DNA of 64,000 nucleotides. Source: Nitrospirota bacterium (GTDB lineage: Bacteria > Nitrospirota > UBA9217). Positions 3-56,252 of the stretch are shown in pieces (position 1 is the first letter of the stretch; the number at the start of each line of letters is the position of its first letter). The translations under genes and the position numbers were made by a program. The notes beneath the pieces were generated by a model that did not search any database, was not told where the DNA came from, and saw nothing but the letters and a program-made list of their open reading frames with translations. Where the stretch lies: the NCBI GenBank assembly GCA_963840455.1, contig CAWIYV010000010.1, positions 224,001-288,000 of the forward strand, read 5' to 3'.

Positions 3-1088
3 TTATACGCGGGCGGCGATGGGGCGGGAACAGCCGATCATGCGAATATCCTTGTGCTTCTTCGCTTCGAGGAGCGCCATGTCCGCGGCGAGCACCAGGT
101 CGTGGGACGCGGTCCCGTCCTGGGGATACGATGCGATCCCGACAGTGACCCCGATGGCGGACCGGTCCGAGGGGAGGGACCGCAGCGCCTCTCCCATGGC
201 GTTCTTGACACGCTTGGCGAACACCTGGTAGGCCTTTTCGAGCCGCGTCTCGGGAAGGATAATAACCATCTCGTCCCCCCCGTAGCGGGCGGCGAGGTCT
301 GAGCTCCGGAGAGATGTCCGGAGGGCCGCGCCCAGCGCGGCAAGCGCCTCATCCCCCGCCTGATGACCGTACCGGTCATTGTAGAGCTTGAAATCGTTCA
401 CGTCGACAAGCGCCAGCGAGAACTCCCTCCCGTGCCGCTCGGCCCGCTGGAGCTCCCGATTCAGCAACTCCTCGAAATAGCGCCGGTTGAAGAGACCCGT
501 GAGCCCGTCAGTGACGGCCCGGTGAGCCACTTCACGGTGCAGCCAGGCGTGGCTGATGGCGATCGCGGCAAAGGATGCAAGGATCTCGAGAGCCTCCAGG
601 TCCTTGGCAGCCAGCATGCGCACCGTTCCGTCGTCGACGAAGAGGATGCCCAAGGTCTCTTTCTGGTGGACAAGCGGCACGCAGACAAGGGCCTTGACCC
701 GTGGTTCCACGTTGTCGGGATCAGTGAAGAACGCCCGGTGGGGGGTGTCGGTGATGACCGTCAGACCCTGGCTCCGGAGCAGGCGGTCCATCAGGCTGTC
801 CGGCCGGACGAGCCATTCACGGTTGGAAATGAACGAGGGAGGAAGCCCCTTGTGGGCGTGGATGCGAAGGGTGTTCGTGATTGGGTGGTACAGGGCGATG
901 CTGCCGGCGGTGGTACCGCTCACTTCCATCGCTTTTCGCAGAATGACGGACAGTGATCGATCGAGATCAAGATGGGACACGACGGCCCGTGCGGTTCCGA
1001 GGATGTCCTGCAGGTCACTATGGCTCTTCAAGACTCCCACGGCTGCTCGTTGTCCCTCCTTCGGCGTATGACGCAACCACGCTCCCAT
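3..1088 (-). CDS. GAF-sensor diguanylate cyclase (GGDEF)
   Basis: GAF domain followed by TDGLTGLFNRR, DVNDFKLYNDRYGHQAGD, RSSD I-site and RYGGDEM active-site motif. Confidence 0.92.
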   Translation of the reverse strand: MGAWLRHTPKEGQRAAVGVLKSHSDLQDILGTARAVVSHLDLDRSLSVILRKAMEVSGTTAGSIALYHPITNTLRIHAHKGLPPSFISNREWLVRPDSLMDRLLRSQGLTVITDTPHRAFFTDPDNVEPRVKALVCVPLVHQKETLGILFVDDGTVRMLAAKDLEALEILASFAAIAISHAWLHREVAHRAVTDGLTGLFNRRYFEELLNRELQRAERHGREFSLALVDVNDFKLYNDRYGHQAGDEALAALGAALRTSLRSSDLAARYGGDEMVIILPETRLEKAYQVFAKRVKNAMGEALRSLPSDRSAIGVTVGIASYPQDGTASHDLVLAADMALLEAKKHKDIRMIGCSRPIAARV

Positions 1089-26859: not shown

Positions 26860-27255
26860 ATGACAACACCTGCCAATGAACGACGAGAGTTCATCCGCGT
26901 TCCCTTCCGTACGGAGATCGAGATCCATACGCCCGCCCGCACGATCCGTTCCCGCAGCAGCCTGGATATCAGCATGAACGGGCTCCACACGGAAACGGAT
27001 GGGCCTGCTCCGGAACCCGGCACCCCCTGCCACGTCAGGATCACCCTCTCGCTTGAAGAACCCCGGATAAGCATCACAGTAAAGGGCTTGATCGTCCGCG
27101 CTGAGCCGGGCACCCTCGCCGTCCACTTTACCGAGATCGACATCGACAGCTATGAGCACCTGCAGAAGCTTATTTTGAACAACGCGAAGGACCCCGAGCG
27201 AGCGGAGCAGGAGATCAGCACGCATTGGGGCATCCGTAAGCCTCTGGACCCTTGA
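26860..27255 (+). CDS. PilZ-domain protein
   Basis: RxxxR (RREFIR) and DxSxxG (DISMNG) c-di-GMP-binding motifs. Confidence 0.9.
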   Translation: MTTPANERREFIRVPFRTEIEIHTPARTIRSRSSLDISMNGLHTETDGPAPEPGTPCHVRITLSLEEPRISITVKGLIVRAEPGTLAVHFTEIDIDSYEHLQKLILNNAKDPERAEQEISTHWGIRKPLDP

Positions 27256-27332
27256 AGCTCCCTGCATCCCGCCGCGGGGAATCTTCGATCCTCACCGTGC
27301 ATTCGTAATCCTCATCGCCCGCTCGTGGATCC
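27252..27332 (+). repeat. family A element, degenerate copy overlapping the PilZ stop codon
   Basis: TTGAAGCTCCCTGCA...GGGGAATCTTCGATCCTCA...ATCGCCCGCTCGTGGAT. Confidence 0.7.
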
Positions 27333-27496
27333 CTCTGCGGAGCGAACTGCCGGACAACGGCACATCCGCCGTTAGCCGGCACGTATCCGATCTGATCAGC
27401 GCCACATGCAGTTCTTTAGGATACGAGGGTCTCTCCAGATCAGAGAGCCTGCAGGAATATCGTGAAGGAGAGGAGTTACGAACGCCCGGCACACGG

Positions 27497-29680
27497 CTAC
27501 CGTCCGTGCAATGCCTTTTTGTTATCGATGATCTTCCTGACCAGGGCAAGCAGCTCGCCGGCGTCGAAGGGCTTCTGCAGGAAATAGTCCGGCTTGACGT
27601 CATCACTCTTTTCGCTGTACCTGCTATACCCGGAAACCGTCAGGAACCGGGTCTGAGGATCGATCTCTGCGATCCGCTTCATCATTTCTCTTCCGTCGAG
27701 CAGCGGCATGACCACGTCCGTGATAACGAGCGATATTTCGCTATGCATCTTCGTGAACGCATCGATAGCGCTCATCGGGTTCGTCGTCGCGATGACCTTG
27801 TATCCGTTCTTCTCCAGCGCCTCCTTGATGAAGTTCAGCACGCTCTCATCGTCGTCCACCAGCAGGACCATTTCGCTACCGCGAGCCGAGAGGACAGCCT
27901 GCTTCCTGGGCATCGATGTGACCTTTGCACTGACCGGCAGATACACCGTAAAGGTCGTTCCCTGGTTTATCTTGCTCTGGACCGTGACGAATCCCTTGTG
28001 CTCCGTGACCACGCCGTAGACCATGGCGAGCCCCAGGCCCGTTCCCTTGCCCCGCTCTTTGGTCGTGAAGAACGGCTCGAAGATCTTGCGCTGGATCTCT
28101 TCCGGGATCCCGACGCCGGTGTCGGCGATCGAAAGCATCACATAGTTGCCTGCGGGAACATACGGAGGAACGCCGTCCACGCCGGGGCGGGCATCGATGG
28201 CCGACGACGTGACCGTAATGATGCCGCCGTACGGCATCGCGTCCCGGGCATTGACCATGAAATTCATGAGCACCTGTTCGACCTGGTTCATGTCGCCCTC
28301 AATGGGCGGAAGACGCTCTCCGAGCGCCAGACGGATCACGATCCGCTTGTCGATCACCCGCTCGAGCAGCTTGACGGTATCGCGCACGACGTCGTTGACA
28401 TCGAACGGCACCCGTTCGATCTCGCTCTTCCGGGAGAAGCCCAGAAGCTGGGACACCATGGTGCCAGCCTTGCGCGAGGCGTTCTCGATGACACTCAGCC
28501 TGCTGAGCACCTTTTCGTTCGCACCGACGTCCCGCCGGATGAGGTCCGTGTATCCCAGGATTGCCGTGAGCACATTGTTGAAGTCGTGGGCGATCCCGCC
28601 GGCCAGCATGCCGATGGAGTCCATTTTCTGCGCCTGGAAGAGATGCTCCTGGATCTTCTTTTTCTCGGTAATGTCCCGCTGGAATGACTGGATGAACACC
28701 TCATCATGAATGGGGATCGCTTTCGAGCTGACCTCGAGAAAAATGCGGGTGCCATCCTTCTTGAAGTGTTCGGTTTCGTATACGAGCGTTTCTCCTTTCA
28801 AGATCCGCTGTAAACGCTCTGCCGCTTCACCGCGCCGTTCGTCCACTTCCAGCAGGCCGCTATGGGAACCGACCAGTGCTTCTTTACTGAAACCGTGCAT
28901 CTCGGAGGCGCGATCGTTCGCGTTCATGATGATGCCGTTCTGGTCCAGGACCATGATGCCGTCGGTCGCGTTATCGAAGAGCGCCTGATGCCACTGGTTG
29001 GACTTGCTCAGCTCTTTGGTTCTGTCCTCGACCATGGATTTCAGCTGGAGGGAATAGACTTCCAGGTGCTTTTTCTGTTCCTCGAGGTCGTATTGGAGAG
29101 CAAGGTTATCCATGAGGAGCTTCTGGCTGAAATAGCGCCATCCGAGACTGCCAAAAATACTGGCGACTAAAAATATATTGCTATTAATGAAGACCCGTGA
29201 ATTAGTAATGGGATCGAGGAGGAGGATTGGAACGACATATATGCCATAGGCGATCGAATTAACGAGCGCCGTCATCTTGACAGAAAGTGGGAGAAAACCC
29301 AGTATAAAGATCAGCACCACGATCAGCCCGGTATAGTAGATAGACTGATGACCGCCAAAATGCAGGATCATGTATTCGACCATCGATATCGGTATCACCG
29401 TGGAAAGGATTATGATACCGCGTTGAAAGTTTTTCCCATGATTTTTCTTCAGCTTGGTAATGATAAAGAGCAGCATAACCGCCGACGAGGCAATCAACCG
29501 ATCGAAGAAGAATCTCGTGAAATTCTCAGGGGTAACAAAGTAGTCCAATATCCCTAATATCAGAAGAAAGAATGCACCATAAGGCAAAAGCACGGCCAGT
29601 GACGAGCTAGTCAGGGCAAAAAGCTTGTCTTGTATATACCGCTCTTTTTTATAGTACGCTTGACCTTCGATATCAGCCAT
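27497..29680 (-). CDS. membrane hybrid sensor histidine kinase (multi-TM, PAS, HisKA, HATPase, REC); PhcS-like sensor
   Basis: about 6 TM segments ([11 protein letters not shown]...SIYYTGL), [14 protein letters not shown]-box, [17 protein letters not shown] with VITDVVMP. Confidence 0.92.
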
Positions 29681-29684
29681 AATA

Positions 29685-31111
29685 TTAACTGGTGCTGCCC
29701 CGCTCCCTTCTTATGATCGTTTGAGCAGTATCATACCCTACGTACGTGACGCCGGATATTCCCAGCCCCTGGGTCGTCCAATGTCCGGTTAAATACAGGT
29801 TTCTGACGAATGACGGTTTTTTGAAGCCAGATACCGCTAACTGTGAGGGCATCCCTGCCCACCCAAAAGATGCCCCCTGATAATTTAACGTGTATCGATG
29901 CAATGTATGCGGTGTGGCCGCTGTCCTATATTTTATACAATTTGATAGCTGAGGTATAGAGTTATTCTCGATTTTCTTAATGAGCAGCTCAAGCGCCTTA
30001 TTTTTATTTTTCAGCCAAAATTTTTTAGTTTTATAGGGCGCCGGCACGAGCGCGATCAGTGTTGATCTGTCCTTAGACAACCGCAGCATATAGCCGCCAA
30101 AGCCGTCCACATCCCCTTCACAGGCAGCACGGTATGACCGATCTAAATCATAGTGCGAGAGAAACCAAAGATTCGTTCCTGCCCTAGGTAAAAACTTGCT
30201 TTGACAGTCTATACCGAGGTAGGCAATGAACATTGACGTGGAGGGCACAAGGGCAGTCAGCTGCTCGCAAAGTTCTTCCGGAATTTTCTTTTTCCCAAGA
30301 AGTTTGAGAAACGTTTGTCGTGCATCTCCATTAGAGATAACATAGTGGGAGGGCAGGTAGCCGTCTTTTTCGACAACAATACCTTGTACCTCGCCATCTT
30401 TTGCTTTTATTTTTTTGACCAAACAGGACAATCGCAATTCTCCGCCAAGCTCCCTGAATCTTTCGGACAAAGCATCAGGGAGCGCCTGCATGCCGCTCTC
30501 CGGATGATATCCGCCATCAAGAAGAAACTCCGAGAACAGCTTCGAACCAATAAATGCGGACATACGTGATGGCGGCAGGCCACCGAGCCCCAGCAAGGGG
30601 GCGGCCAGAAGTGTCTTGATCCTGTCATTGGTACAATACTGATCGAGAAGGTTTTGGAAGGTCCAGCTCCTGATGCGGGAAAATGAATGAGGGTCCGGAT
30701 TCAACAGGAATTGAAAAAAATTCTTTACGTTTTCCCGTTCCTCCGGAAAGATTGTTGCAAATCCTTCAATGGTCCGATGGATATCCGTCCAGAAAGAGAC
30801 CGTATGATCCGGCGTAATCACCGTATCCGACGGATCGGACCTTGGTAATGTTGAGTTTCTTATCTATTCCCAGGTCTGCTACATACTTTTCTTGTAATTC
30901 CATCTTTCCGATAACCGCCAAAACAATGGGCCGCAGCGTCAAACGTAAAGCGTCCTCTTCGGAAGGACGTGCAGTATCCTCCCGGTTTATGGTGTTGTTC
31001 GGCGATGAGCACCTTCAGTCCGGCCTTCGCAAGATAGCACCCGCAGACCAGTCCGCTCATACCCGCACCGATAATGATAACATCGTACGTTTCTTTATCG
31101 GGTTTTGCCAT
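29685..31111 (-). CDS. phytoene desaturase-like FAD oxidoreductase (two +1 frameshifts near 30840-30885)
   Basis: N-terminal DVIIIGAGMSG...EQHHKPGGYC in one frame; C-terminal AATPHT...GASFG...NLYLTGHWT in another; removing two bases gives a 475-codon ORF. Confidence 0.82.
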
Positions 31112-31112
31112 C

Positions 31113-31364
31113 TCAGGTCTTTTTTTGCTCAATTAATTTGCTGACCAGATCCATCGCCTGTTTCACCGTTGCAAGCTTCGGAACATCCTCGTCCCTAACC
31201 GAGATCTTGAATTTTTTCTCAATGGCAACGGTTATTTCTATGGCCTTGATAGAATCGATTTCCAGGTCTTGGAAAAAATTGGTGTCCGGCTTGATCTCTT
31301 CCGGTTCGTAGCCAGAGACCTCTGAAATGATCGCGATGATGTCCTTCTCGATGTTCTCTCGCAA
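31113..31364 (-). CDS. acyl carrier protein
   Basis: DLEIDSIKAIEI phosphopantetheine Ser motif; acidic 83-aa protein. Confidence 0.95.
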   Translation of the reverse strand: MRENIEKDIIAIISEVSGYEPEEIKPDTNFFQDLEIDSIKAIEITVAIEKKFKISVRDEDVPKLATVKQAMDLVSKLIEQKKT

Positions 31365-31379
31365 ATCCCTGCCTCCTTC

Positions 31380-32588
31380 TCACGACTGAAATTTTTTTAT
31401 GACCAACGAGGCATTGTTCCCACCAAAAGCGTATGAATTATTGAGGGCGATGTTAACTTCGTGCGCGCGAGCTTTATTGGGCACACAGTCAATATCGCAT
31501 TCCGGATCAGGTGTTTCATAGTTGATCGTCGGCGGGATCATATCATCCTTCACGATCAGTGCGCATGCGATGGCCTCAAGGGCCGATGCCGCACCCATGG
31601 TATGTCCGAGCATAGACTTAATCGAGCTGACCGGGATCCTGTTGTACCGTGGGCCAAAGACCTCCTTGATCGAAGCGCATTCCATCTTATCGTTCGCAAG
31701 CGTGCCGGTCCCGTGGGCGCTGATATACGATACGTCATCTTTCCCGATGCCGGCTTCGCGCAATGCCCTTGTCATGCATGCTGATATGCCTTCGACCGTG
31801 GCCGTCGTCATGTGGTGTGCATCGCAGCTGAGACCATAGCCGCCTATCTCGGCATAGATGTTGGCCTTTCTCCTTACGGCAGCCTCAAGCGACTCGAGAA
31901 TGATGATCCCTGCGCCTTCAGCGGGGATCATTCCTTTTCTATTTTTGTCAAATGGCTGGCATTTCTCCGGCGCTACCGCCTTGAACTGATTGAAGCCGGT
32001 ATACTCGATCCGAGAAACCGCGTCAGATGCGCCGGCAAGTACAATCTCGGCCCGGCCCAACCTGATGAGATCATAGGCATATGCAATTGCATAGTTGCCT
32101 GCGGCACAGGCAGTAGAAAACATAAAATTAGGACCATGGCAGCTCAGCTCGGCGGCAATGGCGGCCGGTGCCGTGTGCGTCGGCATTTGAGAGAACAGCT
32201 CTTTTCCCGGCTTCCGCTGTCGAACGAGCAGCACATCAACATCTTCTATTGCCTGGGCAGCACCTAATGTCGTTCCATGGGAGACGCCGATCGTGCGGTC
32301 AGCAGCATCCCCGGCCGTGATGCCTGCGTCGTCCCACGCAAGTTTAGCCGAGGCCACGGCCATCTGGGTGGCGCGGTTCATGAATGGCAGCCGGTCCCCG
32401 GGGATGAAATTTTCGGCCCTGAAATCTCGCACTTCGCCGCCGTTGTGGGTGAAATGGTTCGCAGTATCGAAAGACGTAACCGGGCTGATCCCTGATCTCC
32501 CGTCCAGAAGATTCCCCCAGAACTCCTTCCATCCGATGCCGATGGAGGAGACGACGCCCAGGCCAGTTATGACGACGCGCTTATTCAT
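31380..32588 (-). CDS. beta-ketoacyl-ACP synthase (FabF-like, catalytically intact)
   Basis: STACAAG (Cys), SAHGTGT (His), KSMLGHTMGA (His), NSYAFGGNN. Confidence 0.95.
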   Translation of the reverse strand: MNKRVVITGLGVVSSIGIGWKEFWGNLLDGRSGISPVTSFDTANHFTHNGGEVRDFRAENFIPGDRLPFMNRATQMAVASAKLAWDDAGITAGDAADRTIGVSHGTTLGAAQAIEDVDVLLVRQRKPGKELFSQMPTHTAPAAIAAELSCHGPNFMFSTACAAGNYAIAYAYDLIRLGRAEIVLAGASDAVSRIEYTGFNQFKAVAPEKCQPFDKNRKGMIPAEGAGIIILESLEAAVRRKANIYAEIGGYGLSCDAHHMTTATVEGISACMTRALREAGIGKDDVSYISAHGTGTLANDKMECASIKEVFGPRYNRIPVSSIKSMLGHTMGAASALEAIACALIVKDDMIPPTINYETPDPECDIDCVPNKARAHEVNIALNNSYAFGGNNASLVIKKFQS

Positions 32589-33021
32589 GCTTTACGCTGA
32601 ACACCAGCTCCGCCTCAGCGACCTTTGTCTCGCCTACCGAGGCCGCTCCCGACACATAGGCTCCGGTTGGCAGGGATTTGACGTTTTCAACGGTTATTCT
32701 GATCTGATCTCCCGGAGTGACCGCATGCAGAAAGCGGGCTTTGACCGAGCCGAAGTAGTACAGAGGCTTTGGAGCCCCCTCCGGCGGCCCGTTCTTCGAT
32801 GCGAACATGACAATGGCCGCCTGCGCCATGGCCTCGATGATGGCCGCCCCGGGCATGACGGCCTTTTCCGGGAAATGGCCGAGAAAGAAGATGTCGTTCC
32901 CTGAGACGTTCTTGATCGCCACCGCGCGCTTGCCCGGCTCGATCTCGACGATCCGGTCCAGCATGATGAAGGGAAAACGCTGGGGGATAAGCTTCTTGAT
33001 CTCTTCAAAATCGAGCTGCAT
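32581..33021 (-). CDS. fabZ: 3-hydroxyacyl-ACP dehydratase (FabZ-like)
   Basis: IPQRFPFIMLD, GHFPEKAVMPGAAIIEAMAQ. Confidence 0.9.
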   Translation of the reverse strand: MQLDFEEIKKLIPQRFPFIMLDRIVEIEPGKRAVAIKNVSGNDIFFLGHFPEKAVMPGAAIIEAMAQAAIVMFASKNGPPEGAPKPLYYFGSVKARFLHAVTPGDQIRITVENVKSLPTGAYVSGAASVGETKVAEAELVFSVKHE

Positions 33022-33024
33022 GTG

Positions 33025-34260
33025 TCACCGTCCTCTGCCGCCGAGGATGACGGCCGCATTCTGTCCGTAGGGGTCGGCAGCGGTCACGAGCACCCTGCCC
33101 ACCGGCCGCTGTCGGGCCGAGTTCGGCACGTTGTCGAGGTCGCAGTGCGGGTCAGGCCTGTGATAGCTCACCGTGGGGGGAATAAAGCCCTTTCGTATGG
33201 CTCCGACCGCGGCAGACAGCGCCAAAGCGCCCGAAGCGGAGAATGACTCTCCTATCATCGACTTGATCGCGCTCACCGGAACGCTGGACGCATGACTCCC
33301 GAGCACCTCCTTCAAGACCCTCGTCTCCATACGGTCGAGCCCTGGCGTTCCGTTCGCGCAGGCGCAGACATATTCAAGATCTTCGGGCCGGCTTTGAGCG
33401 TCTTCGAGCGCAAGTTCGATGGCGGTCTTCAGGCCTTTTCCTGCACGTTCAAAAGAACTGTCCGATCCGGGATCAAAGGCGTTCCCGGCGCCCAGCACCA
33501 CGGCGAGTATCTCGGCTCCCCGGCTCACGGCATGCTGTTCATCTTCCAATACCAGCATTGCCGCGCCCTCAGACAGGACGAACCCATCCCTGGCCGCATC
33601 AAAGGGCCGGCTGACCGGTTCGCCGCCGCTCATCCCGGACAGATATCCCAGGTTATGGAACAGGAGAAATGTCTCTTCGCAGAGCTCTTCCACACCCCCG
33701 GCAAGGACAACATCAGCCCTTCCCTGCCGGATGAAATCAGCTGCGTAGGAGACGGCATCGAGCCCGGCACAGAAGCCGGTGGATATGGTGGTATTGAAAC
33801 CCTTGATGTTGAAACGGATCGAGACCTGACTTGCCGGAGCGTTGATGACCGTGTTCGGGAAATGGGATGGATTGACGAGCCTCGGTCCTTCGATGAGGCC
33901 TGAGCGGTCGAACTGGGAGATGCTGTGGAGGCTTCCGAAGGTCGAACCAAGCGATACGCCGATCGCGCCGGTATTGACGTTAGTGATATCAAGCCTGCTG
34001 TCGTCCAGGGCGAGCTTCGCTGCGGAACAGGCAAGACGCGCGCTCCGGTCAAGTTCCCGAAGCCCTTTTTTCCCGAGATATTCCACCGGGTCGAAACCGG
34101 CGATCTCGCCCGCAAGCTTCACAGCATACGGAGCCGCGTCAAAAAGCGTTATGGGCCGGAAGCCCTTCTCACCGTGTGCCAGTGCCTGCCAATATGCATC
34201 CCTGCCCTTTCCGATCGAGGAGATGACCCCCAGACCGGTTATGACGACCGTTTTCCCCAT
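33025..34260 (-). CDS. ketosynthase-like chain-length factor (non-catalytic KS)
   Basis: KS fold with the catalytic triad replaced: STGFCAG, CACANGT, KSMIGESF. Confidence 0.85.
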   Translation of the reverse strand: MGKTVVITGLGVISSIGKGRDAYWQALAHGEKGFRPITLFDAAPYAVKLAGEIAGFDPVEYLGKKGLRELDRSARLACSAAKLALDDSRLDITNVNTGAIGVSLGSTFGSLHSISQFDRSGLIEGPRLVNPSHFPNTVINAPASQVSIRFNIKGFNTTISTGFCAGLDAVSYAADFIRQGRADVVLAGGVEELCEETFLLFHNLGYLSGMSGGEPVSRPFDAARDGFVLSEGAAMLVLEDEQHAVSRGAEILAVVLGAGNAFDPGSDSSFERAGKGLKTAIELALEDAQSRPEDLEYVCACANGTPGLDRMETRVLKEVLGSHASSVPVSAIKSMIGESFSASGALALSAAVGAIRKGFIPPTVSYHRPDPHCDLDNVPNSARQRPVGRVLVTAADPYGQNAAVILGGRGR

Positions 34261-34266
34261 GTCCCC

Positions 34267-35022
34267 TTACATTCCCAGGCCGCCGTCTATCTGGACAACC
34301 TGCCCGGTCATATAATGCGACGCATCGCTCACCAAAAAAAGCACCGCCTGCGCAACCTCGCCGGCCGTGCCGAACCGTCCCAACGGGATCTGCTGGAGGG
34401 CCTTTTCCCGGAATTTTTCGCCAAGCTGCGATGTCATGTCTGTTTCGATGAATCCGGGAGCGACGGCATTTACGCGGATGTTGTACGGTGCCACTTCTTT
34501 TGCCAGCGACTTCGTGAATCCGATGATCCCCGCCTTGGCCGCGGCATAGTTCACCTGGCCCGCCATGGGCCGGATGCCGCTGACCGACGAAACATTCACG
34601 ACGTTCCCGCTTTTCTGCTTGAGGAAAGTGATGATACAGGCGCGGGTCGTATTGAAGACTCCCGTCAGATCGGTGTCGATGACGTCGCCCCAGTCCTCCC
34701 TGCTCATCGCCATGAGCGACCGATCGCGGGTGATGCCGGCGTTATTGACGAGGATGTCGAGCCTGCCGAACTCGCCTTTGACCTGCTCGATCATGGTTTT
34801 CGCGCCTTCGAAGTCCCGGACATCGAGCCGTATCGGTAAAGCCCGTTGTCCCAAAGCCCGAACCTCGGCAGCCAGGGCCTCGGCGGCTTCCTGGTGAGCC
34901 GTATAGGTGAACGCGCAGTCAGCGCCCTGCCCGCTCAGGGCAAGCACAATGGCGCGTCCTATGCCCCGCGACCCGCCCGTAACAATGGCCGTGTTATCGC
35001 GCAGCCGCTTCTGGTCCAACAA
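34267..35022 (-). CDS. fabG: 3-oxoacyl-ACP reductase (FabG-like)
   Basis: TGGSRGIG, NNAGITRD, YAAAKAG, APGFIETDMT; TTG start after ggagg. Confidence 0.92.
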   Translation of the reverse strand: MLDQKRLRDNTAIVTGGSRGIGRAIVLALSGQGADCAFTYTAHQEAAEALAAEVRALGQRALPIRLDVRDFEGAKTMIEQVKGEFGRLDILVNNAGITRDRSLMAMSREDWGDVIDTDLTGVFNTTRACIITFLKQKSGNVVNVSSVSGIRPMAGQVNYAAAKAGIIGFTKSLAKEVAPYNIRVNAVAPGFIETDMTSQLGEKFREKALQQIPLGRFGTAGEVAQAVLFLVSDASHYMTGQVVQIDGGLGM

Positions 35023-35137
35023 ACCTCCCGGTCCTGCGGAACGATACGTCATCAGCGAAGCCAGGTGAACGAGAATTCCCGCCCGCTCGATTTCAGAGGC
35101 CTTGGTTTCGTCCGCTCCGCCTGTCCCGTGCGCCCCA

Positions 35138-36187
35138 TTACTTGGTGGACGAATAGAACACGATCACACCGCTCCTGTCGCGGGTCATGGTCATCTTGTC
35201 CACAGGTATTCCCGCCTCGCCAAGGATCCGCTCGAAGTCCTTCACTGTCCGCTGCAGGAACCCGTCCCAATCCGCGATCCAGTGGTACTCCTGGGCACGG
35301 TAGCGGTCCGCATCCTTGAACGCGGCAATGAGCTTCCCGCCTTTGTTCAGCAGCTGGTAGAGGGACCGCAGCAGCTTTACGAGAAAATCATCAGGGAGGT
35401 AATCGAAATATCCCACGCTGTAGATCACATCCTGGGGACCGAACTCAGCTTTGGCGATGTCGTGGTCGAACATCCTGAGCGCGTTGTACTTGGTCACCGT
35501 TATCTGCTCAGGAGCCAGGTCCGCAGGCGCGAACCGTTTCACGGCGAAATCCAGGGCGTCGCCGTCGAGGTCGATGCAGGTGAACTTCGCCTTCGATTGT
35601 CTGATATCCGGGACCAGCATCGAGACCTCACGGCACGAACCGCAGGCAATATCCAGCACTTTCAGGTCCTGCCTCGCGGAAAGCTCGGCATGGAGAAGCT
35701 CGGTCAGCTTCTCAAGCCTCCCTCGCAGGGCGTGGGCGAGCGGCCAGTCCAGGATATATTTGTCCAGATAGTATCCAATTCCGTCGGACATTGGCGTGTT
35801 CCGATACGCGGTTTCTAGTGTCTTGTAGTCTCCCTGGTAGCCCTGCGGCCAGGTCCGGATCCGGTTGATGGCATAGCTTTTTGAAAGAAAGGGGTGGGTC
35901 CTCTTGCGGAAATAGGACCGGGTGGCCTTTATCACGTTCTCATCCTTGACCTCCGCCTCGAACTGTGCACAGACCTTCAGGACCGTATCGTTCAAGGTTA
36001 CGATGTCCCGGAGAATGGCCTCCTCATCCGCCTGGTCACCCGCGATGCGTCGCTCCAGGGTCCTCAGTTCCTCCATGTAGCGCTCGATCGCCTGCCCGAG
36101 GATGAGCGTGTATTTTTCCTGCTCTTCTCCGACCGACCAGAGGGCATCCTGCTCAGCATTAACCCCGTATTTCAGTTCGTTCTCCAT
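35138..36187 (-). CDS. class I SAM-dependent methyltransferase, PhcB-like
   Basis: WPQGYQGDY, VLDIACGSCRE, CIDLDGDAL, DVIYSVGYFDYLPD; resemblance to the PhcB family is from recalled motifs, not a search. Confidence 0.8.
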   Translation of the reverse strand: MENELKYGVNAEQDALWSVGEEQEKYTLILGQAIERYMEELRTLERRIAGDQADEEAILRDIVTLNDTVLKVCAQFEAEVKDENVIKATRSYFRKRTHPFLSKSYAINRIRTWPQGYQGDYKTLETAYRNTPMSDGIGYYLDKYILDWPLAHALRGRLEKLTELLHAELSARQDLKVLDIACGSCREVSMLVPDIRQSKAKFTCIDLDGDALDFAVKRFAPADLAPEQITVTKYNALRMFDHDIAKAEFGPQDVIYSVGYFDYLPDDFLVKLLRSLYQLLNKGGKLIAAFKDADRYRAQEYHWIADWDGFLQRTVKDFERILGEAGIPVDKMTMTRDRSGVIVFYSSTK

Positions 36188-36439
36188 AATAATTGCTCTC
36201 CTTATTGTCAGAATGTTTGATGTGATGCCGGCACACCGGATACCGTGGGGCGTGACCACTTGGGGCACGGCAGCGGTCAGCTCATGAACAGATGCGGGGG
36301 GTCACCTCCTTCTTCTAGCAAAGTGATAGTGCATCAATGCTCAGCCCCGATAGTGCCGGCCAGGGGCTATTTCTCAGTACAGTGAACGATTGATAATGAA
36401 AAGGACAGGGTAGCGTAACGAGCGACTGCGACGACTAAA

Positions 36440-36478
36440 ACATTACCTGCAGAGCGGAATTAAGTCAAGTTTTTTTTG
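36440..36478 (-). promoter_or_regulatory. putative sigma70 promoter of the methyltransferase/FAS/kinase operon
   Basis: minus strand TTGACT-17nt-TAATGT with an upstream A-tract. Confidence 0.55.
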
Positions 36479-36609
36479 TTTCAAAAGTGGTCGTGCGAAA
36501 GGTTCAGGAAGGCATAAGAGGACTACTTTAGGATTATGAACGAGCAACGCCTCGTCGTTGCGGTTATGTGCGCTGCATCTGATGCGAGAACAGGAAAGGG
36601 AGGGGAGCT

Positions 36610-37290
36610 TTAGATGGCGGAGATTATGCCGCGGTCCATACGGAAGTGCTGCTGGGTCTGGCGGGCAAGGTCGGAATTATGGGTGACCATGATGAAGGTG
36701 GTGCCGTGCTCTTTGTTCATCCGGAGAAAGAACTGCATCATGTCGTTCTCGGTCTCCTCGTCAAGGTCGCCCGTCGGTTCGTCGGCGAGGATGAGCTCGG
36801 GGCTGTTCATGAAGGCCCGGGCGATGGCCACGCGGCGCTGCTGACCGCCCGAGAGCTGGGAAGGATGGGCATTGATCTTGTCGCTGAGCCCTACTGCACG
36901 GAGGAGCTCCGTCGCTCTCTGCTCGTGGCCATCACCGGCTGTCCGCTGCGGCCGGAACGCGACAGGCAGCAGGAGGTTCTCCTTCGCCGTCAGGATCGGG
37001 AGCAGGCTCGCGGACTGGAACATGAAGCCGACCTGCTCGCACCGGTACTCCGAAAGCCGGTCGCTGGTCCAGGTATAGAGGTCCTCGCCGTTGAACAGAA
37101 CCCGGCCCGCTGTGGGAGAGACCATCCCGCCGACGAGCGACAGGAGTGTCGTCTTGCCCGAGCCGGAATGGCCCACGATGGAGACGAACGATCCCTTCTC
37201 GATGGTCAGGGATGCGTTCTTCACCGCGACGATGGTGTCGCTTCCCACCGGGTACTCCTTCACTACCTTGTCGATCACGATCTGGCTCAT
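36610..37290 (-). CDS. ABC transporter ATP-binding protein (LolD/MacB type)
   Basis: GHSGSGKT, LSGGQQRRVAIARA, ADEPTGDLD, VTH. Confidence 0.95.
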   Translation of the reverse strand: MSQIVIDKVVKEYPVGSDTIVAVKNASLTIEKGSFVSIVGHSGSGKTTLLSLVGGMVSPTAGRVLFNGEDLYTWTSDRLSEYRCEQVGFMFQSASLLPILTAKENLLLPVAFRPQRTAGDGHEQRATELLRAVGLSDKINAHPSQLSGGQQRRVAIARAFMNSPELILADEPTGDLDEETENDMMQFFLRMNKEHGTTFIMVTHNSDLARQTQQHFRMDRGIISAI

Positions 37291-37292
37291 GC

Positions 37293-38483
37293 TTACTCCG
37301 TTTTGATCACCATCAGGGGCTCCATCTTCTTGAGACGCTGGATCGGCCCCAGTGCGCCGAGCACGCAGATCGCCGTCCCGCCCAGGAAGCTCATTACCGA
37401 GATCACGACCCGTTCCATGACGGAAAGATCGGTGGAGAGATGCTTGACGATGGAGAATGTCTTCGCGAAGAGCGCGGATAGGCCAGTCCCCGCGACGATG
37501 CCGAGGACGCTCCCGGCAAGGCCGATGACCAGCACCTCGATCAGGAATATCCGGAAGATGTGCCGTTCCTTCGCGCCCAGGGCGCGCATGATGCCCACCT
37601 CCTTGGCCCGCTCGTTCGCGATGGCGGTAAAGATGGCCCAGACCAGGAAAAAGGACATGATCGCCGTCAGGGAGATGGTCATGGTGAAGATCCTGCTCAT
37701 GTCCGTGAGCGTTGTGATGATGTTCTTGCCGATGTCCTTGCGGGCCATGGCATCGGCCTCGATGATATTGTCCTCGACCTCCGCAGCAACCGTTGCCGGG
37801 TCGACACCGGGCTTTACCTTGACCAGGATCACCGAGATATCATCAGGCTGCAGGTTCTTCACCTTGCCGCTCGCGACGATCGCCAGCATGTTCTCCATCC
37901 CGATGAACACCGCCCTGTCGTACCCCGTACCGGTCCTTTCCAACGACCCGACGAGCCTGAACACGTTCCCGAACAGCATGCTGTCCATCTCGACGAGCCC
38001 CAGCCGGATGTTGAACGCCGATTCGTCGCCGGCGACCGCCTCTCCCTTGCCGAGCCTGCGCTGAAGCTTCTCCGCCAGCCAGGGCTTGATGATGAAGTCC
38101 GTGTCCTGGTTGAAGGCGATCACCATCGAATCGGGGACGGAGCAACATACGCCCGCGACCGTGACGAGGTACACCTGCTCGGTGGCCTTCTCGACGCCCG
38201 GAAGGGCCCGCACACGATCAAGGATGCTCCGTTTCATATAGAAGGTCTTGATCCGGTTCTCGAGCAGGATCTCCTCGGCCGCTCCCCGCGCGTTGGTGGG
38301 CACGACCAGCACGTCCGCTCCGAGCCGCTCCGTGCTCTTCTTGATGCTGCCGTTCACACGCTGGACAAAGGACAGCGAGAACACGAGCGCCGATGACAGC
38401 AGCGCAATGGCGAAAATCAGGATGGCGGTTCGGAGGGGCTTCCGCTTGAGGTTCTTGATGGCAAAGGGAGTAAGGCTCGGCAT
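37293..38483 (-). CDS. ABC transporter permease (MacB-like periplasmic core + FtsX)
   Basis: KNLKRKPLRT, LGADVLVVP, periplasmic CC motif, ERAKEVGIMRALGA. Confidence 0.92.
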   Translation of the reverse strand: MPSLTPFAIKNLKRKPLRTAILIFAIALLSSALVFSLSFVQRVNGSIKKSTERLGADVLVVPTNARGAAEEILLENRIKTFYMKRSILDRVRALPGVEKATEQVYLVTVAGVCCSVPDSMVIAFNQDTDFIIKPWLAEKLQRRLGKGEAVAGDESAFNIRLGLVEMDSMLFGNVFRLVGSLERTGTGYDRAVFIGMENMLAIVASGKVKNLQPDDISVILVKVKPGVDPATVAAEVEDNIIEADAMARKDIGKNIITTLTDMSRIFTMTISLTAIMSFFLVWAIFTAIANERAKEVGIMRALGAKERHIFRIFLIEVLVIGLAGSVLGIVAGTGLSALFAKTFSIVKHLSTDLSVMERVVISVMSFLGGTAICVLGALGPIQRLKKMEPLMVIKTE

Positions 38484-38695
38484 GGGAAGGTCTATCTTTC
38501 TCGCATCATGATCGCGGTTCAATATCTAGATCATTATACCGGATGGATGAATTCTTATGCAAGCGGCAAATGAGACGATCTGCCGGATTCGGCCCGGGCC
38601 CATCCGGGGCGCACCAGCTCCGGCGCGCAGGCACAAAAAAACCTCTCCCCGCGGATGGACCGCAGGGAGAGGTCATGGTCAGCAGATGGTGGTGA

Positions 38696-54923: not shown

Positions 54924-56252
54924 CTATCCCTTGTCGCTGTTCTGGATCGCCTGGTACAAACGCTGCACGAGGACCTGGTTGTAACCGTGAGAGGTCATGT
55001 TGGCCGTAATGCGGCCTTTGATGGGGAAACCGAGGAGATAGAGGTCGCCGATCAGGTCCAGGATCTTGTGGCGCACGAACTCGTCGGGATAACGGAGCTC
55101 CGTGTTGATGACCTTGCCGTCGTACATGATGATGTGCGACTGGAGATACCCGCCTCCGACCTTTCCCAGTTTCTGGGCCATATCGATGTTCTCAAAGGTG
55201 TTGAAGGAGCGGGCCGGAGCTATGTCCCGCGCGAAAGAGCCCGTCATCGGATTGAACGTAAGGACCTGTTCGCCTATGGGGAGCGGATAGTCGACGCGCA
55301 TCGATATCTCGAACCCTTCATAAGCCTCCGCATAGAGATGCTTTTCATGCTTTTCTTCTTTTCCAAATCCGATCTTTTGGCGGATGACAGCGACCTTGGT
55401 GGAGGCGGACTGTTCCTCGATCCCCGCCTCTTCGATGAGTCCGCAAAAATCCTTGGCGGAACCGTCCACGTTCGGTATCTCCTCGTCGACCTTGATGAGC
55501 ACATTGGTTATACCGTACATGGAAAGGACCGCCATCAGGTGCTCAACCGTGCGCACCCGCCGCCTGCCGTTGTCCAGGGTGGTGGAGTTGGCGGAGAAGG
55601 TCTTCGAGGAGCCGACCTGGGCGTAATCCTCAAGGGACGTAATATGTCCACGGATGGTCTGGCCGTCAAGCGTTTGATAGACGATCCCTTCGTTGATACC
55701 GAGGGGGCTTAGAATGATACCGGTGTTCCGGCCGCTCAGGAGCCCGATGCCGTTCAGGACCATGTTCCCCCGCAGGGTGCGCTGTGGTTCAGGGGAATCC
55801 ACCACGTCCACCACGCCGGGAGGCATCGAAAGATCGGCGCTGACGATCTCAAGCCTCGTATCCGAGGGCAGGACCGTGCTGCGCCCGGCAGGCCGGTGCT
55901 TCAGCGCGGACTCCACCTTGTCGAGCAGGACCTCCATATGCAGCGGCTTTTCCAGAAAATCGTAGGCGCCCGCCTTGATGGCGGCAACCGCCGACTCGAT
56001 GCCGGCATGTCCGCTCATCATGATGACAGGGAGCTGGGGGAACCGGCCATGCAGACGTTTCAGAAGCTGCATGCCGTCCATGCCGGGAAGCCAGACATCC
56101 AGCAGGACGAGAGAGGGCTCCATGGTAGCGAGCCTCTCCCAGAAGCTCTCCGAATCTGGAAATATGAGGGCCGGATATCCCTCGTCCTTCAGGATGCTCG
56201 CGACCGTGGAACAGATGGAAGGTTCGTCGTCTACTATACAGATAGGGTTCAT
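54924..56252 (-). CDS. lpxC: response-regulator receiver fused to UDP-3-O-acyl-GlcNAc deacetylase LpxC
   Basis: REC: IVDDE, LLDVWLPGMDG, MSGH, FLEKP; LpxC: QRTL..GIGL.SG, TVEHLMA, DGSA, IAPARSF, LRYPDEFVRHKILDLIGDL. Confidence 0.9.
   Translation of the reverse strand: MNPICIVDDEPSICSTVASILKDEGYPALIFPDSESFWERLATMEPSLVLLDVWLPGMDGMQLLKRLHGRFPQLPVIMMSGHAGIESAVAAIKAGAYDFLEKPLHMEVLLDKVESALKHRPAGRSTVLPSDTRLEIVSADLSMPPGVVDVVDSPEPQRTLRGNMVLNGIGLLSGRNTGIILSPLGINEGIVYQTLDGQTIRGHITSLEDYAQVGSSKTFSANSTTLDNGRRRVRTVEHLMAVLSMYGITNVLIKVDEEIPNVDGSAKDFCGLIEEAGIEEQSASTKVAVIRQKIGFGKEEKHEKHLYAEAYEGFEISMRVDYPLPIGEQVLTFNPMTGSFARDIAPARSFNTFENIDMAQKLGKVGGGYLQSHIIMYDGKVINTELRYPDEFVRHKILDLIGDLYLLGFPIKGRITANMTSHGYNQVLVQRLYQAIQNSDKG

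Follow-up and report, generated by a model that had tools for sequence, protein, structure and literature searches.

A candidate Phc-type lipid-ester signalling operon with its own acyl synthase in a Nitrospirota bacterium

The stretch of DNA analysed here, referred to as the window, comprises 64,000 nucleotides (nt) from a Nitrospirota bacterium (assembly GCA_963840455.1, contig CAWIYV010000010.1, positions 224,001 to 288,000) and carries on its minus strand, at 27497-36187, eight co-oriented and tightly packed genes, which were identified by open reading frame (ORF) calls, Pfam and NCBIfam. The first of these genes codes for a methyltransferase (MT) and the last one for a hybrid kinase with a membrane-embedded sensor domain, with the genes of an acyl synthase lying in between. 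Judged from comparison of the encoded proteins, the operon is with a probability of about 0.55 a self-contained Phc-type system, which would comprise both the maker and the sensor of a lipid-ester signal. For Ralstonia, a pair of the PhcB/PhcS type has been reported to make and to sense a secreted ester signal. The signal/receptor reading is considered the best one because MT and kinase form a conserved frame, because both are homologous to the Ralstonia pair, because nine loci hold the pair in minimal form and because the locus shows the pattern of a specificity locus.

The conservation of the frame was derived from a scan of one genome per species (tblastn with the window proteins), which yielded 80 loci, nearly all of them titled Nitrospirota or Thermodesulfovibrionia. 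A kinase with a homologous sensor domain lies downstream of the MT on the same strand in 46 of the 80 loci, which corresponds to 46 of the 48 that can be judged: 32 of the other 34 end at most 609 bp from the last recognised gene, and two (L036 and L065) have room for a kinase but hold none. The retention of the kinase beside the cluster, named as a point to be checked by an earlier reading of this stretch made from the letters alone (the sequence-only reading), is hence borne out. In nine loci the MT is followed directly by the kinase, without any synthase. The pairing of both is conserved across the phylum, with or without a synthase in between. The genes between the two vary in content. Among the 61 loci reaching KSb (one of the two ketosynthase-like proteins listed below), 36 hold the reductase gene between MT and KSb, and the flavoenzyme is encoded in 29 and missing from 8 of the 37 loci that combine synthase and kinase. 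Six loci contain a second methyltransferase, which weakly resembles cyclopropane-fatty-acid synthases, and three (L033, L037 and L050) a gene for a B12-binding radical S-adenosylmethionine (SAM) enzyme, of which the window has none. The MT was identified in 43 of the 63 genomes of the order holding one of the related genomes and is single-copy in the genome of the window. The operon and its parts are as follows.

36188..36468, minus strand: leader (about 280 nt) with a possible promoter
35138..36187, minus strand: MT, PhcB-like class I SAM methyltransferase of 349 amino acids (aa), gene 1 of the operon (Pfam, homologues)
34267..35052, minus strand: FabG-type 3-oxoacyl-acyl carrier protein (ACP) reductase (KR; Pfam adh_short_C2, E 1e-68; TIGR01830, 310 bits, above cut-off)
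33025..34260, minus strand: KSb, catalytically dead ketosynthase (KS) partner, chain-length factor (CLF)-like (Ketoacyl-synt N and C domains)
32581..33021, minus strand: FabZ-type 3-hydroxyacyl-ACP dehydratase (Pfam FabA-like; NF000582, 140 bits, above cut-off)
31380..32588, minus strand: KSa, active ketosynthase (Cys-His-His intact)
31113..31364, minus strand: dedicated ACP (Pfam PP-binding, E 3e-15)
29685..31111, minus strand: CrtI/phytoene-desaturase-like (amine-oxidase-like) flavoenzyme, frameshifted (crtI_fam and Amino_oxidase matches on the C part)
27497..29680, minus strand: hybrid kinase with membrane domain, PAS, HisKA, HATPase_c and REC (Pfam)
29096..29680, minus strand: PhcS-like (MASE8-like) membrane sensor domain of 5-6 helices, kinase residues 1 to about 195
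27497..29095, minus strand: cytoplasmic kinase part with PAS, HisKA, HATPase_c and REC (Pfam)
29096..30880, minus strand: exchangeable block of low guanine-cytosine (GC) content, comprising the C-terminal part of the flavoenzyme and the kinase sensor domain

As calculated from the coordinates, MT and KR genes are separated by 85 nt and all other junctions range from -8 to +15 nt, so that the eight co-oriented and closely spaced genes described earlier are present as such, and the KS/CLF-ACP set does lie between the MT and the kinase, which were rightly said to flank a dedicated acyl synthase. The start of the MT was assigned to the ATG at 36187, in front of which AAGGAG is found, and the resulting 349 aa fit the 349-350 aa of the homologues. 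Apart from the flavoenzyme gene, all seven genes are intact. The single promoter predicted near 36468 fared less well: TTGACT, 17 nt and TAATGT can be read there, but a consensus scan of 27000-36700 does not call this site, as it returned 2 promoter-like sites versus 6.0 expected from shuffles, neither of them near 36468. A riboswitch in the 280-nt leader was considered and rejected, with no Rfam match in 36100-36700.

The MT possesses a class I SAM-dependent fold (Pfam Methyltransf_12/25/23/11, residues 178-337), and 799 homologues of it were retrieved from 5.8 billion proteins. Many of those nearest to it have been named 'extracellular factor (EF) 3-hydroxypalmitic acid methyl ester biosynthesis protein' by the Joint Genome Institute (JGI), the name given to phcB in KEGG. 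Among 1.84 billion cluster representatives, a profile search identified 4374 members at E <=0.001, many of them of about 450-490 residues with an N-terminal extension, and in some homologues a PilZ domain takes the N-terminal place. Ralstonia PhcB was not retrieved, as the species-level genome scan gave the close family only and the plasmid search (tblastn) a Paraburkholderia homologue, and the clusters of ten MT homologues of about 470 aa showed no Ralstonia names. The PhcB comparison was accordingly made with the Paraburkholderia phc-operon MT, located on a Paraburkholderia graminis plasmid (locus L097), where an MT of 468 aa is followed by a kinase of 445 aa and two response regulators. Here, BLASTP revealed 24% identity over 243 aa (E 5e-19) and hhalign aligned residues 73-319 of the window MT with residues 177-435 (98.3%, E 1.3e-14), whereby WPQGYQGDY of the window MT comes to lie on KPLGYAGDY. 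As this alignment starts about 100 residues ahead of the generic methyltransferase fold, the likeness is specific to the MT family. No such likeness was revealed by solved structures, among which the best matches are unrelated methyltransferases (E 0.002-0.003), or by named methyltransferase models including BioC, none of which matches, NCBIfam giving just a sub-threshold match to CpaM. A type I polyketide synthase (PKS) domain among the Enterobacter ludwigii plasmid matches (H6/H7) was found to be 32% identical to MT residues 77-287 (E 9e-15), and relatives of the MT family hence also occur as PKS domains.

Compared to the Burkholderiaceae form, the MT of the window is short of about 120 residues at the N terminus (349 versus 468 aa), and the full PhcB architecture of about 468 aa is not found. 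A resemblance to PhcB had been proposed on the basis of motifs; what holds is homology, documented by both alignments and the phcB label of the JGI names, and what does not hold is orthology, given the low identity and the missing N terminus. The data hence support the assignment of the MT as a distant member of the PhcB family. The four motifs quoted for MT and kinase are present in the translations and align with those of the phcB/phcS-type pair of Paraburkholderia.

The cytoplasmic part of the kinase is ordinary, with PAS at residues 231-344 and REC at residues 605-714 (Pfam). The Paraburkholderia kinase to which its sensor domain was compared is 65% identical to the Cupriavidus taiwanensis 'sensor histidine kinase, repressor of PhcA' and 63% identical to a Ralstonia insidiosa kinase, its relatives are named PhcS by JGI and NCBI, and a phc cluster has been reported in Paraburkholderia phytofirmans (PMC3639386). 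With BLASTP, the sensor domain of the window kinase is 28% identical to the membrane part of the Paraburkholderia PhcS-type kinase (E 1e-11) and matches the kinases of R. insidiosa (E 9e-10) and C. taiwanensis (E 3e-7) as well, and hhalign of 74 window-type versus 118 PhcS-type sensor domains gave 98.8% and E 9e-17 over 171 columns. Hydropathy peaks are found at matching positions, five above threshold in the window sensor and six in the Paraburkholderia protein. PhcS-type kinases are proteins of 440-450 aa consisting of MASE8, HisKA and HATPase only, without PAS and receiver, and PF20968 (MASE8) was identified in 120 of 120 of them among the matches listed; in the literature on MASE8, no link to PhcS was found. 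The resemblance of the kinase to PhcS, also claimed earlier, therefore stands for the sensor domain in terms of homology and fails in terms of orthology, since the MASE8 match is below threshold and PAS and REC are additional. The kinase is thus supported as a distant PhcS-family member by its sensor domain, and identities of 24-28% together with the differing architecture (a short MT and a kinase with PAS and REC) place both proteins outside the PhcB/PhcS orthologue clade. A second weak, sub-threshold MASE8-like match of 20 bits is located elsewhere in the same genome, outside the window (G000:C10:184532-184987, plus strand).

Compared to phcBSRQ/PhcA of Ralstonia, Cupriavidus and Paraburkholderia, for which methyl 3-hydroxymyristate and methyl 3-hydroxypalmitate are the signals, the window operon shares a homologous MT and a MASE8-type sensor encoded in one operon with the MT first, and the nine minimal loci of the Nitrospirota set have both genes adjacent, as are phcB and phcS. 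It differs by the sequence divergence and architectural features given above, by the acyl synthase and tailoring genes between the pair, by the absence of PhcR, PhcQ and PhcA from the window, and by its phylum. A further likeness concerns CqsA/CqsS and LuxM/LuxN, in which a multi-helix hybrid kinase with its own receiver is found beside the synthase of a hydrophobic signal; there, the synthase chemistry is another one, and the likeness is drawn from organisation, not from sequence.

The pattern of a specificity locus was identified at the junction of flavoenzyme and kinase, where the GC content drops to 45-49% between about 29000 and 31400. In comparison with the closest full-length relative (L003), MT, KR, KSb, FabZ, KSa, ACP, the N part of the flavoenzyme and the kinase core are 73-90% identical at the protein level, but identity is 55% for the flavoenzyme C part and 52% for the sensor domain. 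In the flanks, a genome of the same genus (G067) shows about 90% identity with L003; within the block (about 30880-29096), it is this genome which resembles the window, with 65-85% nucleotide identity in 150-nt windows, and L003 reaches 41-71% to both (44-71% to G067). As G067 shares the block allele and possesses an intact flavoenzyme gene, the block does exist and did not arise from chimeric assembly, and the frameshifts of the flavoenzyme gene are private to the window sequence. Foreign DNA or chimerism as the cause of the low GC content was hence dismissed, the block being low in GC in G067 and L003, too.

Consistent histories within the block and differing ones outside of it were further indicated by distance correlations over the 19 rows (the window, G067 and 17 loci) in which no part is incomplete, related rows among them not being independent. 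Spearman coefficients amount to 0.68 between flavoenzyme C part and sensor domain and to 0.61-0.74 among MT, KSb and kinase core in pairwise comparison, and versus the kinase core they are 0.28 for the flavoenzyme C part and 0.22 for the sensor domain. Flank trees and block trees conflict, and in approximately unbiased (AU) tests either data set rejects clades of the other, with p 2e-6 to 3e-122. Based on the block, {L003, G067} (p 4e-54) and {L011, L013} (p 3e-122) are rejected; based on the flanks, this applies to {L003, L011} (p 2e-6) and {window, G067} (p 4e-75). Rejection of {L003, G067} was also obtained when either the flavoenzyme part or the sensor domain was tested by itself. In three comparisons, the right boundary of the block coincides with the sensor/kinase junction at kinase residues 195-212, two of these comparisons being further pairs with the boundary at about 197 and about 212; the left boundary varies and may reach into KSa. 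When gene-content labels of 36 kinases were mapped (12 other loci with a kinase match were dropped for partial coverage, and the 'minimal' label of L017 is an artefact of a fragmented KS), the sensor-domain tree required 9 changes, a value as low being reached in 0 of 200 shuffles, and the kinase-core tree required 15, with 135 of 200 shuffles as low. These comparisons of sequences show that flavoenzyme C part and sensor domain form one divergent block, which lineages have exchanged as a unit.

The arrangement is reminiscent of agr of staphylococci and comQXP of Bacillus, which are specificity ('pherotype') loci with peptide signals: likewise, a hypervariable signal-processing gene goes along with a hypervariable sensor half, and the conserved kinase core follows the history of the organism. 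The proteins are unrelated, however, and the Nitrospirota block is not homologous to these loci. PhcB is reportedly a specificity determinant in Phc systems; a corresponding role of the window MT was considered and rejected, as MT distances follow the flanks and not the sensor. Just upstream of the block, between the ACP and flavoenzyme genes, six loci (L023, L026, L028, L046, L053 and L056) carry insertions at one shared position, the inserted elements being toxin-antitoxin pairs (Phd/PIN, nucleotidyltransferase/HepT or HEPN, DUF433/DUF5615), an IS110 transposase and GIY-YIG and DUF559 nucleases.

Turning to the synthase, active-site alignment revealed the triad Cys-His-His in KSa and Phe/Cys/Glu at the same positions in KSb, so that the designation of the latter as CLF-like, given earlier, is correct. 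Among solved structures, KSa is best matched by 9s5h_B (E 5e-142, 476 bits, residues 1-401) and second best by the ishigamide KS 6kxd_A (E 1.3e-99), KSb is best matched by 9s5h_C (E 4.6e-108) and FabZ by 7qv0_A (E 3e-34), and the PDB matches of the ACP include 7qv0_D, 7auf_A and 9s5i_E (E about 1e-13), 9s5i being a sister of 9s5h which holds an ACP. For FabZ and ACP, the scores versus the presumed anammox entries are just slightly above those versus ordinary FabZ and ACP. The entries 9s5h/9s5i and 7qv0 are probably the anammox Cluster I proteins of a 2026 preprint (10.64898/2026.05.19.726425), the main text of which gives no PDB codes, wherefore we infer the identity of 9s5h/9s5i. In this text, the amxFabF2/amxFabFmut heterodimer, for which crystal structures with and without ACP are presented, is shown to work like a KS/CLF complex and reported to prefer C6-C8 substrates in cross-linking. 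Cluster I (KustE3603-3608) is given there as amxACP, amxFabZ, amxFabF2, amxFabFmut, a phytoene-dehydrogenase homologue and a B12-radical SAM enzyme and is called unique to ladderane producers; similar cassettes in Desulfotalea had been noted by Rattray et al. 2009 (PMC2649909).

On the structural matches, the synthase core is a close relative of this 'ladderane Cluster I'. Of the parts listed for Cluster I, the window holds an active KS, a dead KS partner, FabZ, ACP and a (broken) CrtI-like flavoenzyme, and the B12-radical SAM gene is found in L033, L037 and L050; the Nitrospirota cassette differs in that a PhcB-like MT and a PhcS-like kinase frame it and in belonging to another phylum. As the synthase is related to the anammox amxFabF heterodimer, it is plausible that the ester would be unsaturated or of unusual length, as had been proposed. 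In two otherwise near-identical pairs of loci (L011/L013 and L009/L015), a stretch within KSa has diverged to identities of 0.56-0.78 versus about 0.9 in neighbouring genes, which might reflect a change of chain-length preference.

The relatedness to Cluster I is the starting point of the main rival explanation, according to which a specialised membrane lipid is the product of the operon, in keeping with the assumption made for the anammox cluster, with the kinase serving as sensor for membrane feedback or homeostasis and the MT modifying the lipid without giving rise to a diffusible ester. The solved structures that best match KSa, KSb, FabZ and ACP are just those presumed Cluster I entries, the B12-radical SAM gene of some relatives fits in, and neither an exporter nor a thioesterase is encoded in the operon; moreover, a multi-helix sensor can read membrane composition and would co-vary with a lipid-tailoring enzyme, too. 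What this explanation leaves unaccounted for are the nine loci that keep the MT-kinase pair without any synthase and the homology of both partners to a pair used in Ralstonia for a secreted signal, and among the genes of the operon Pfam and NCBIfam identified no phospholipid acyltransferase. We therefore regard a lipid-making operon as rather unlikely.

Still less probable is that the MT acts at the start of synthesis, as does BioC with malonyl-ACP, or that its substrate is a polyene or a secondary metabolite of a highly reducing type II PKS, with the kinase merely regulating the cluster. Such PKSs, exemplified by Iga11/Iga12 of ishigamide biosynthesis, combine a KS/CLF heterodimer with KR, dehydratase and ACP, and the operon resembles them by this set and its lack of an enoyl reductase, by the second-best solved relative of KSa being the ishigamide KS and, as regards an early-acting MT, by the MT being the first gene. 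They do not, however, possess an MT-kinase frame, and the closest solved relative of the window synthase is the FabF-type heterodimer 9s5h and not a PKS. Furthermore, no BioC or other named methyltransferase model matches the MT apart from the sub-threshold CpaM, MT and kinase occur without KS in nine loci, and KR, dehydratase and flavoenzyme are dispensable in many.

The flavoenzyme gene is the one gene of the operon found disrupted. Its FAD-binding N part (GxGxxG; frame 30860-31132) and the remainder (frame 29685-30863) are out of frame with each other, tblastn with intact homologues splits into two frames, and DNA alignment with these identified two single-base insertions near 30848-30869. 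In relatives, including G067 with the same allele, the flavoenzyme is intact and comprises 474-477 aa. Contigs of four public sequencing runs leave 30716-30955 uncovered; among the runs listed, the share of the sampled words does not exceed 0.23, and there is no RNA run among them. Unless the frameshifts are sequence errors, the product in this genome would be untailored. That the neighbourhood was inherited without functional coupling, or that the system decays in this genome, for which these two frameshifts and the toxin-antitoxin modules, IS110 transposase and homing-type nucleases inserted into relatives' clusters could be quoted, is highly improbable in view of seven intact genes, a kinase kept in nearly all judgeable loci and block boundaries falling on a domain junction in three comparisons.

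A number of points weigh against a signalling system and were considered in assigning the probability given above. MT and kinase are just 24-28% identical to the Burkholderiaceae proteins, and Pfam MASE8 scores 18.2 bits on the window kinase (E 0.003), below the gathering cut-off of 26.2. A scan of 58 ORFs of the window, to which the search was confined, gave no PhcR, PhcQ, LysR-type regulator or stand-alone response regulator, which agrees with the earlier statement that no PhcR or PhcA is visible in the window. Among these ORFs, the only other REC domain is that of an LpxC fusion 25 kb away. An Hpt partner near the operon was considered and rejected, the genome's three Hpt domains all residing in large proteins outside the window. 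No thioesterase is found in the operon and no exporter is conserved beyond close relatives, the flavoenzyme gene is broken in the window's genome, and the characterised proteins closest to the synthase are, according to the preprint, assumed to make membrane lipids and not signals. Regarding the exchange pattern, the Spearman coefficient of MT versus sensor domain is 0.14, the MT sharing the history of the flanks and not that of the sensor. Furthermore, the flavoenzyme part adjoins the sensor domain, so that joint transfer could be plain linkage, and the clades subjected to AU tests were named after the identity tables were known.

The signal/receptor system, which remains the preferred reading, may be envisaged as follows. 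The KS/CLF pair and the ACP would, together with FabG, FabZ and probably housekeeping fatty-acid synthase enzymes, build a short or medium acyl chain, which would then be shaped by a tailoring enzyme, namely the CrtI-like flavoenzyme in most relatives and the second methyltransferase or the B12-radical SAM enzyme in others. Next, the MT may esterify the carboxyl group, as PhcB does on 3-hydroxy fatty acids. The thus formed hydrophobic ester is expected to enter membranes, where it would be read by the 5-6-helix sensor domain, and the kinase would pass the phosphate via its own receiver domain to a partner. The exchangeable block, finally, would set signal/receptor 'dialects'.

The surroundings of the operon comprise, on the downstream side, a convergent PilZ gene and a peptidyl-prolyl isomerase gene. 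The former (26860-27255, plus strand) codes for a stand-alone PilZ domain (E 3e-15) and is convergent to the end of the kinase gene; as a part of the system it was rejected, since it is found at this place in G067 and L003 only. PilZ beside the kinase and N-terminal PilZ in some MT homologues of other lineages hint at control by cyclic di-GMP. On the upstream side, an ABC transporter (36610-38522) was considered as signal exporter and rejected, being kept in loci L001-L006 only. At the window edge, a GAF-GGDEF diguanylate cyclase gene is found (3-1088, minus strand). The LpxC fusion is encoded by an ORF of 442 aa (54924-56252, minus strand), in which a receiver domain (residues 4-113) is fused to the lipid A deacetylase LpxC (residues 157-433), and it suggests phosphorylation control of lipid A synthesis. 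An anaerobic lifestyle of the host, as presumed earlier, is inferred with the titles of related loci (Nitrospirota/Thermodesulfovibrionia) as its only basis.

To our knowledge, studies of Phc-type signalling are confined to Ralstonia and close relatives, and in the literature no description was found of a Phc-type system in Nitrospirota or of a Cluster-I-type cassette framed by such a pair. The operon documented here places paired members of the PhcB and PhcS families in another phylum of mostly uncultured bacteria and, as the pair is joined to its own acyl synthase there, the signal is presumably a different one. The block predicts that its alleles represent cross-specific signal/receptor pairs. 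Taken further, though tentatively and with more doubt than belief, anaerobic Nitrospirota might possess a polymorphic, pherotype-like chemical language, in which a PhcB-type MT would esterify a short chain made by a Cluster-I-type synthase and blocks of tailoring enzyme and sensor would constitute mutually unintelligible dialects. Since the synthase is closely related to an anammox cassette called unique to ladderane producers, the finding bears on the interpretation of Cluster I: if true, the supposedly ladderane-specific cluster would be one member of a wider small-lipid synthase family with signalling as the role of some members, and this would change the reading of the anammox cluster.

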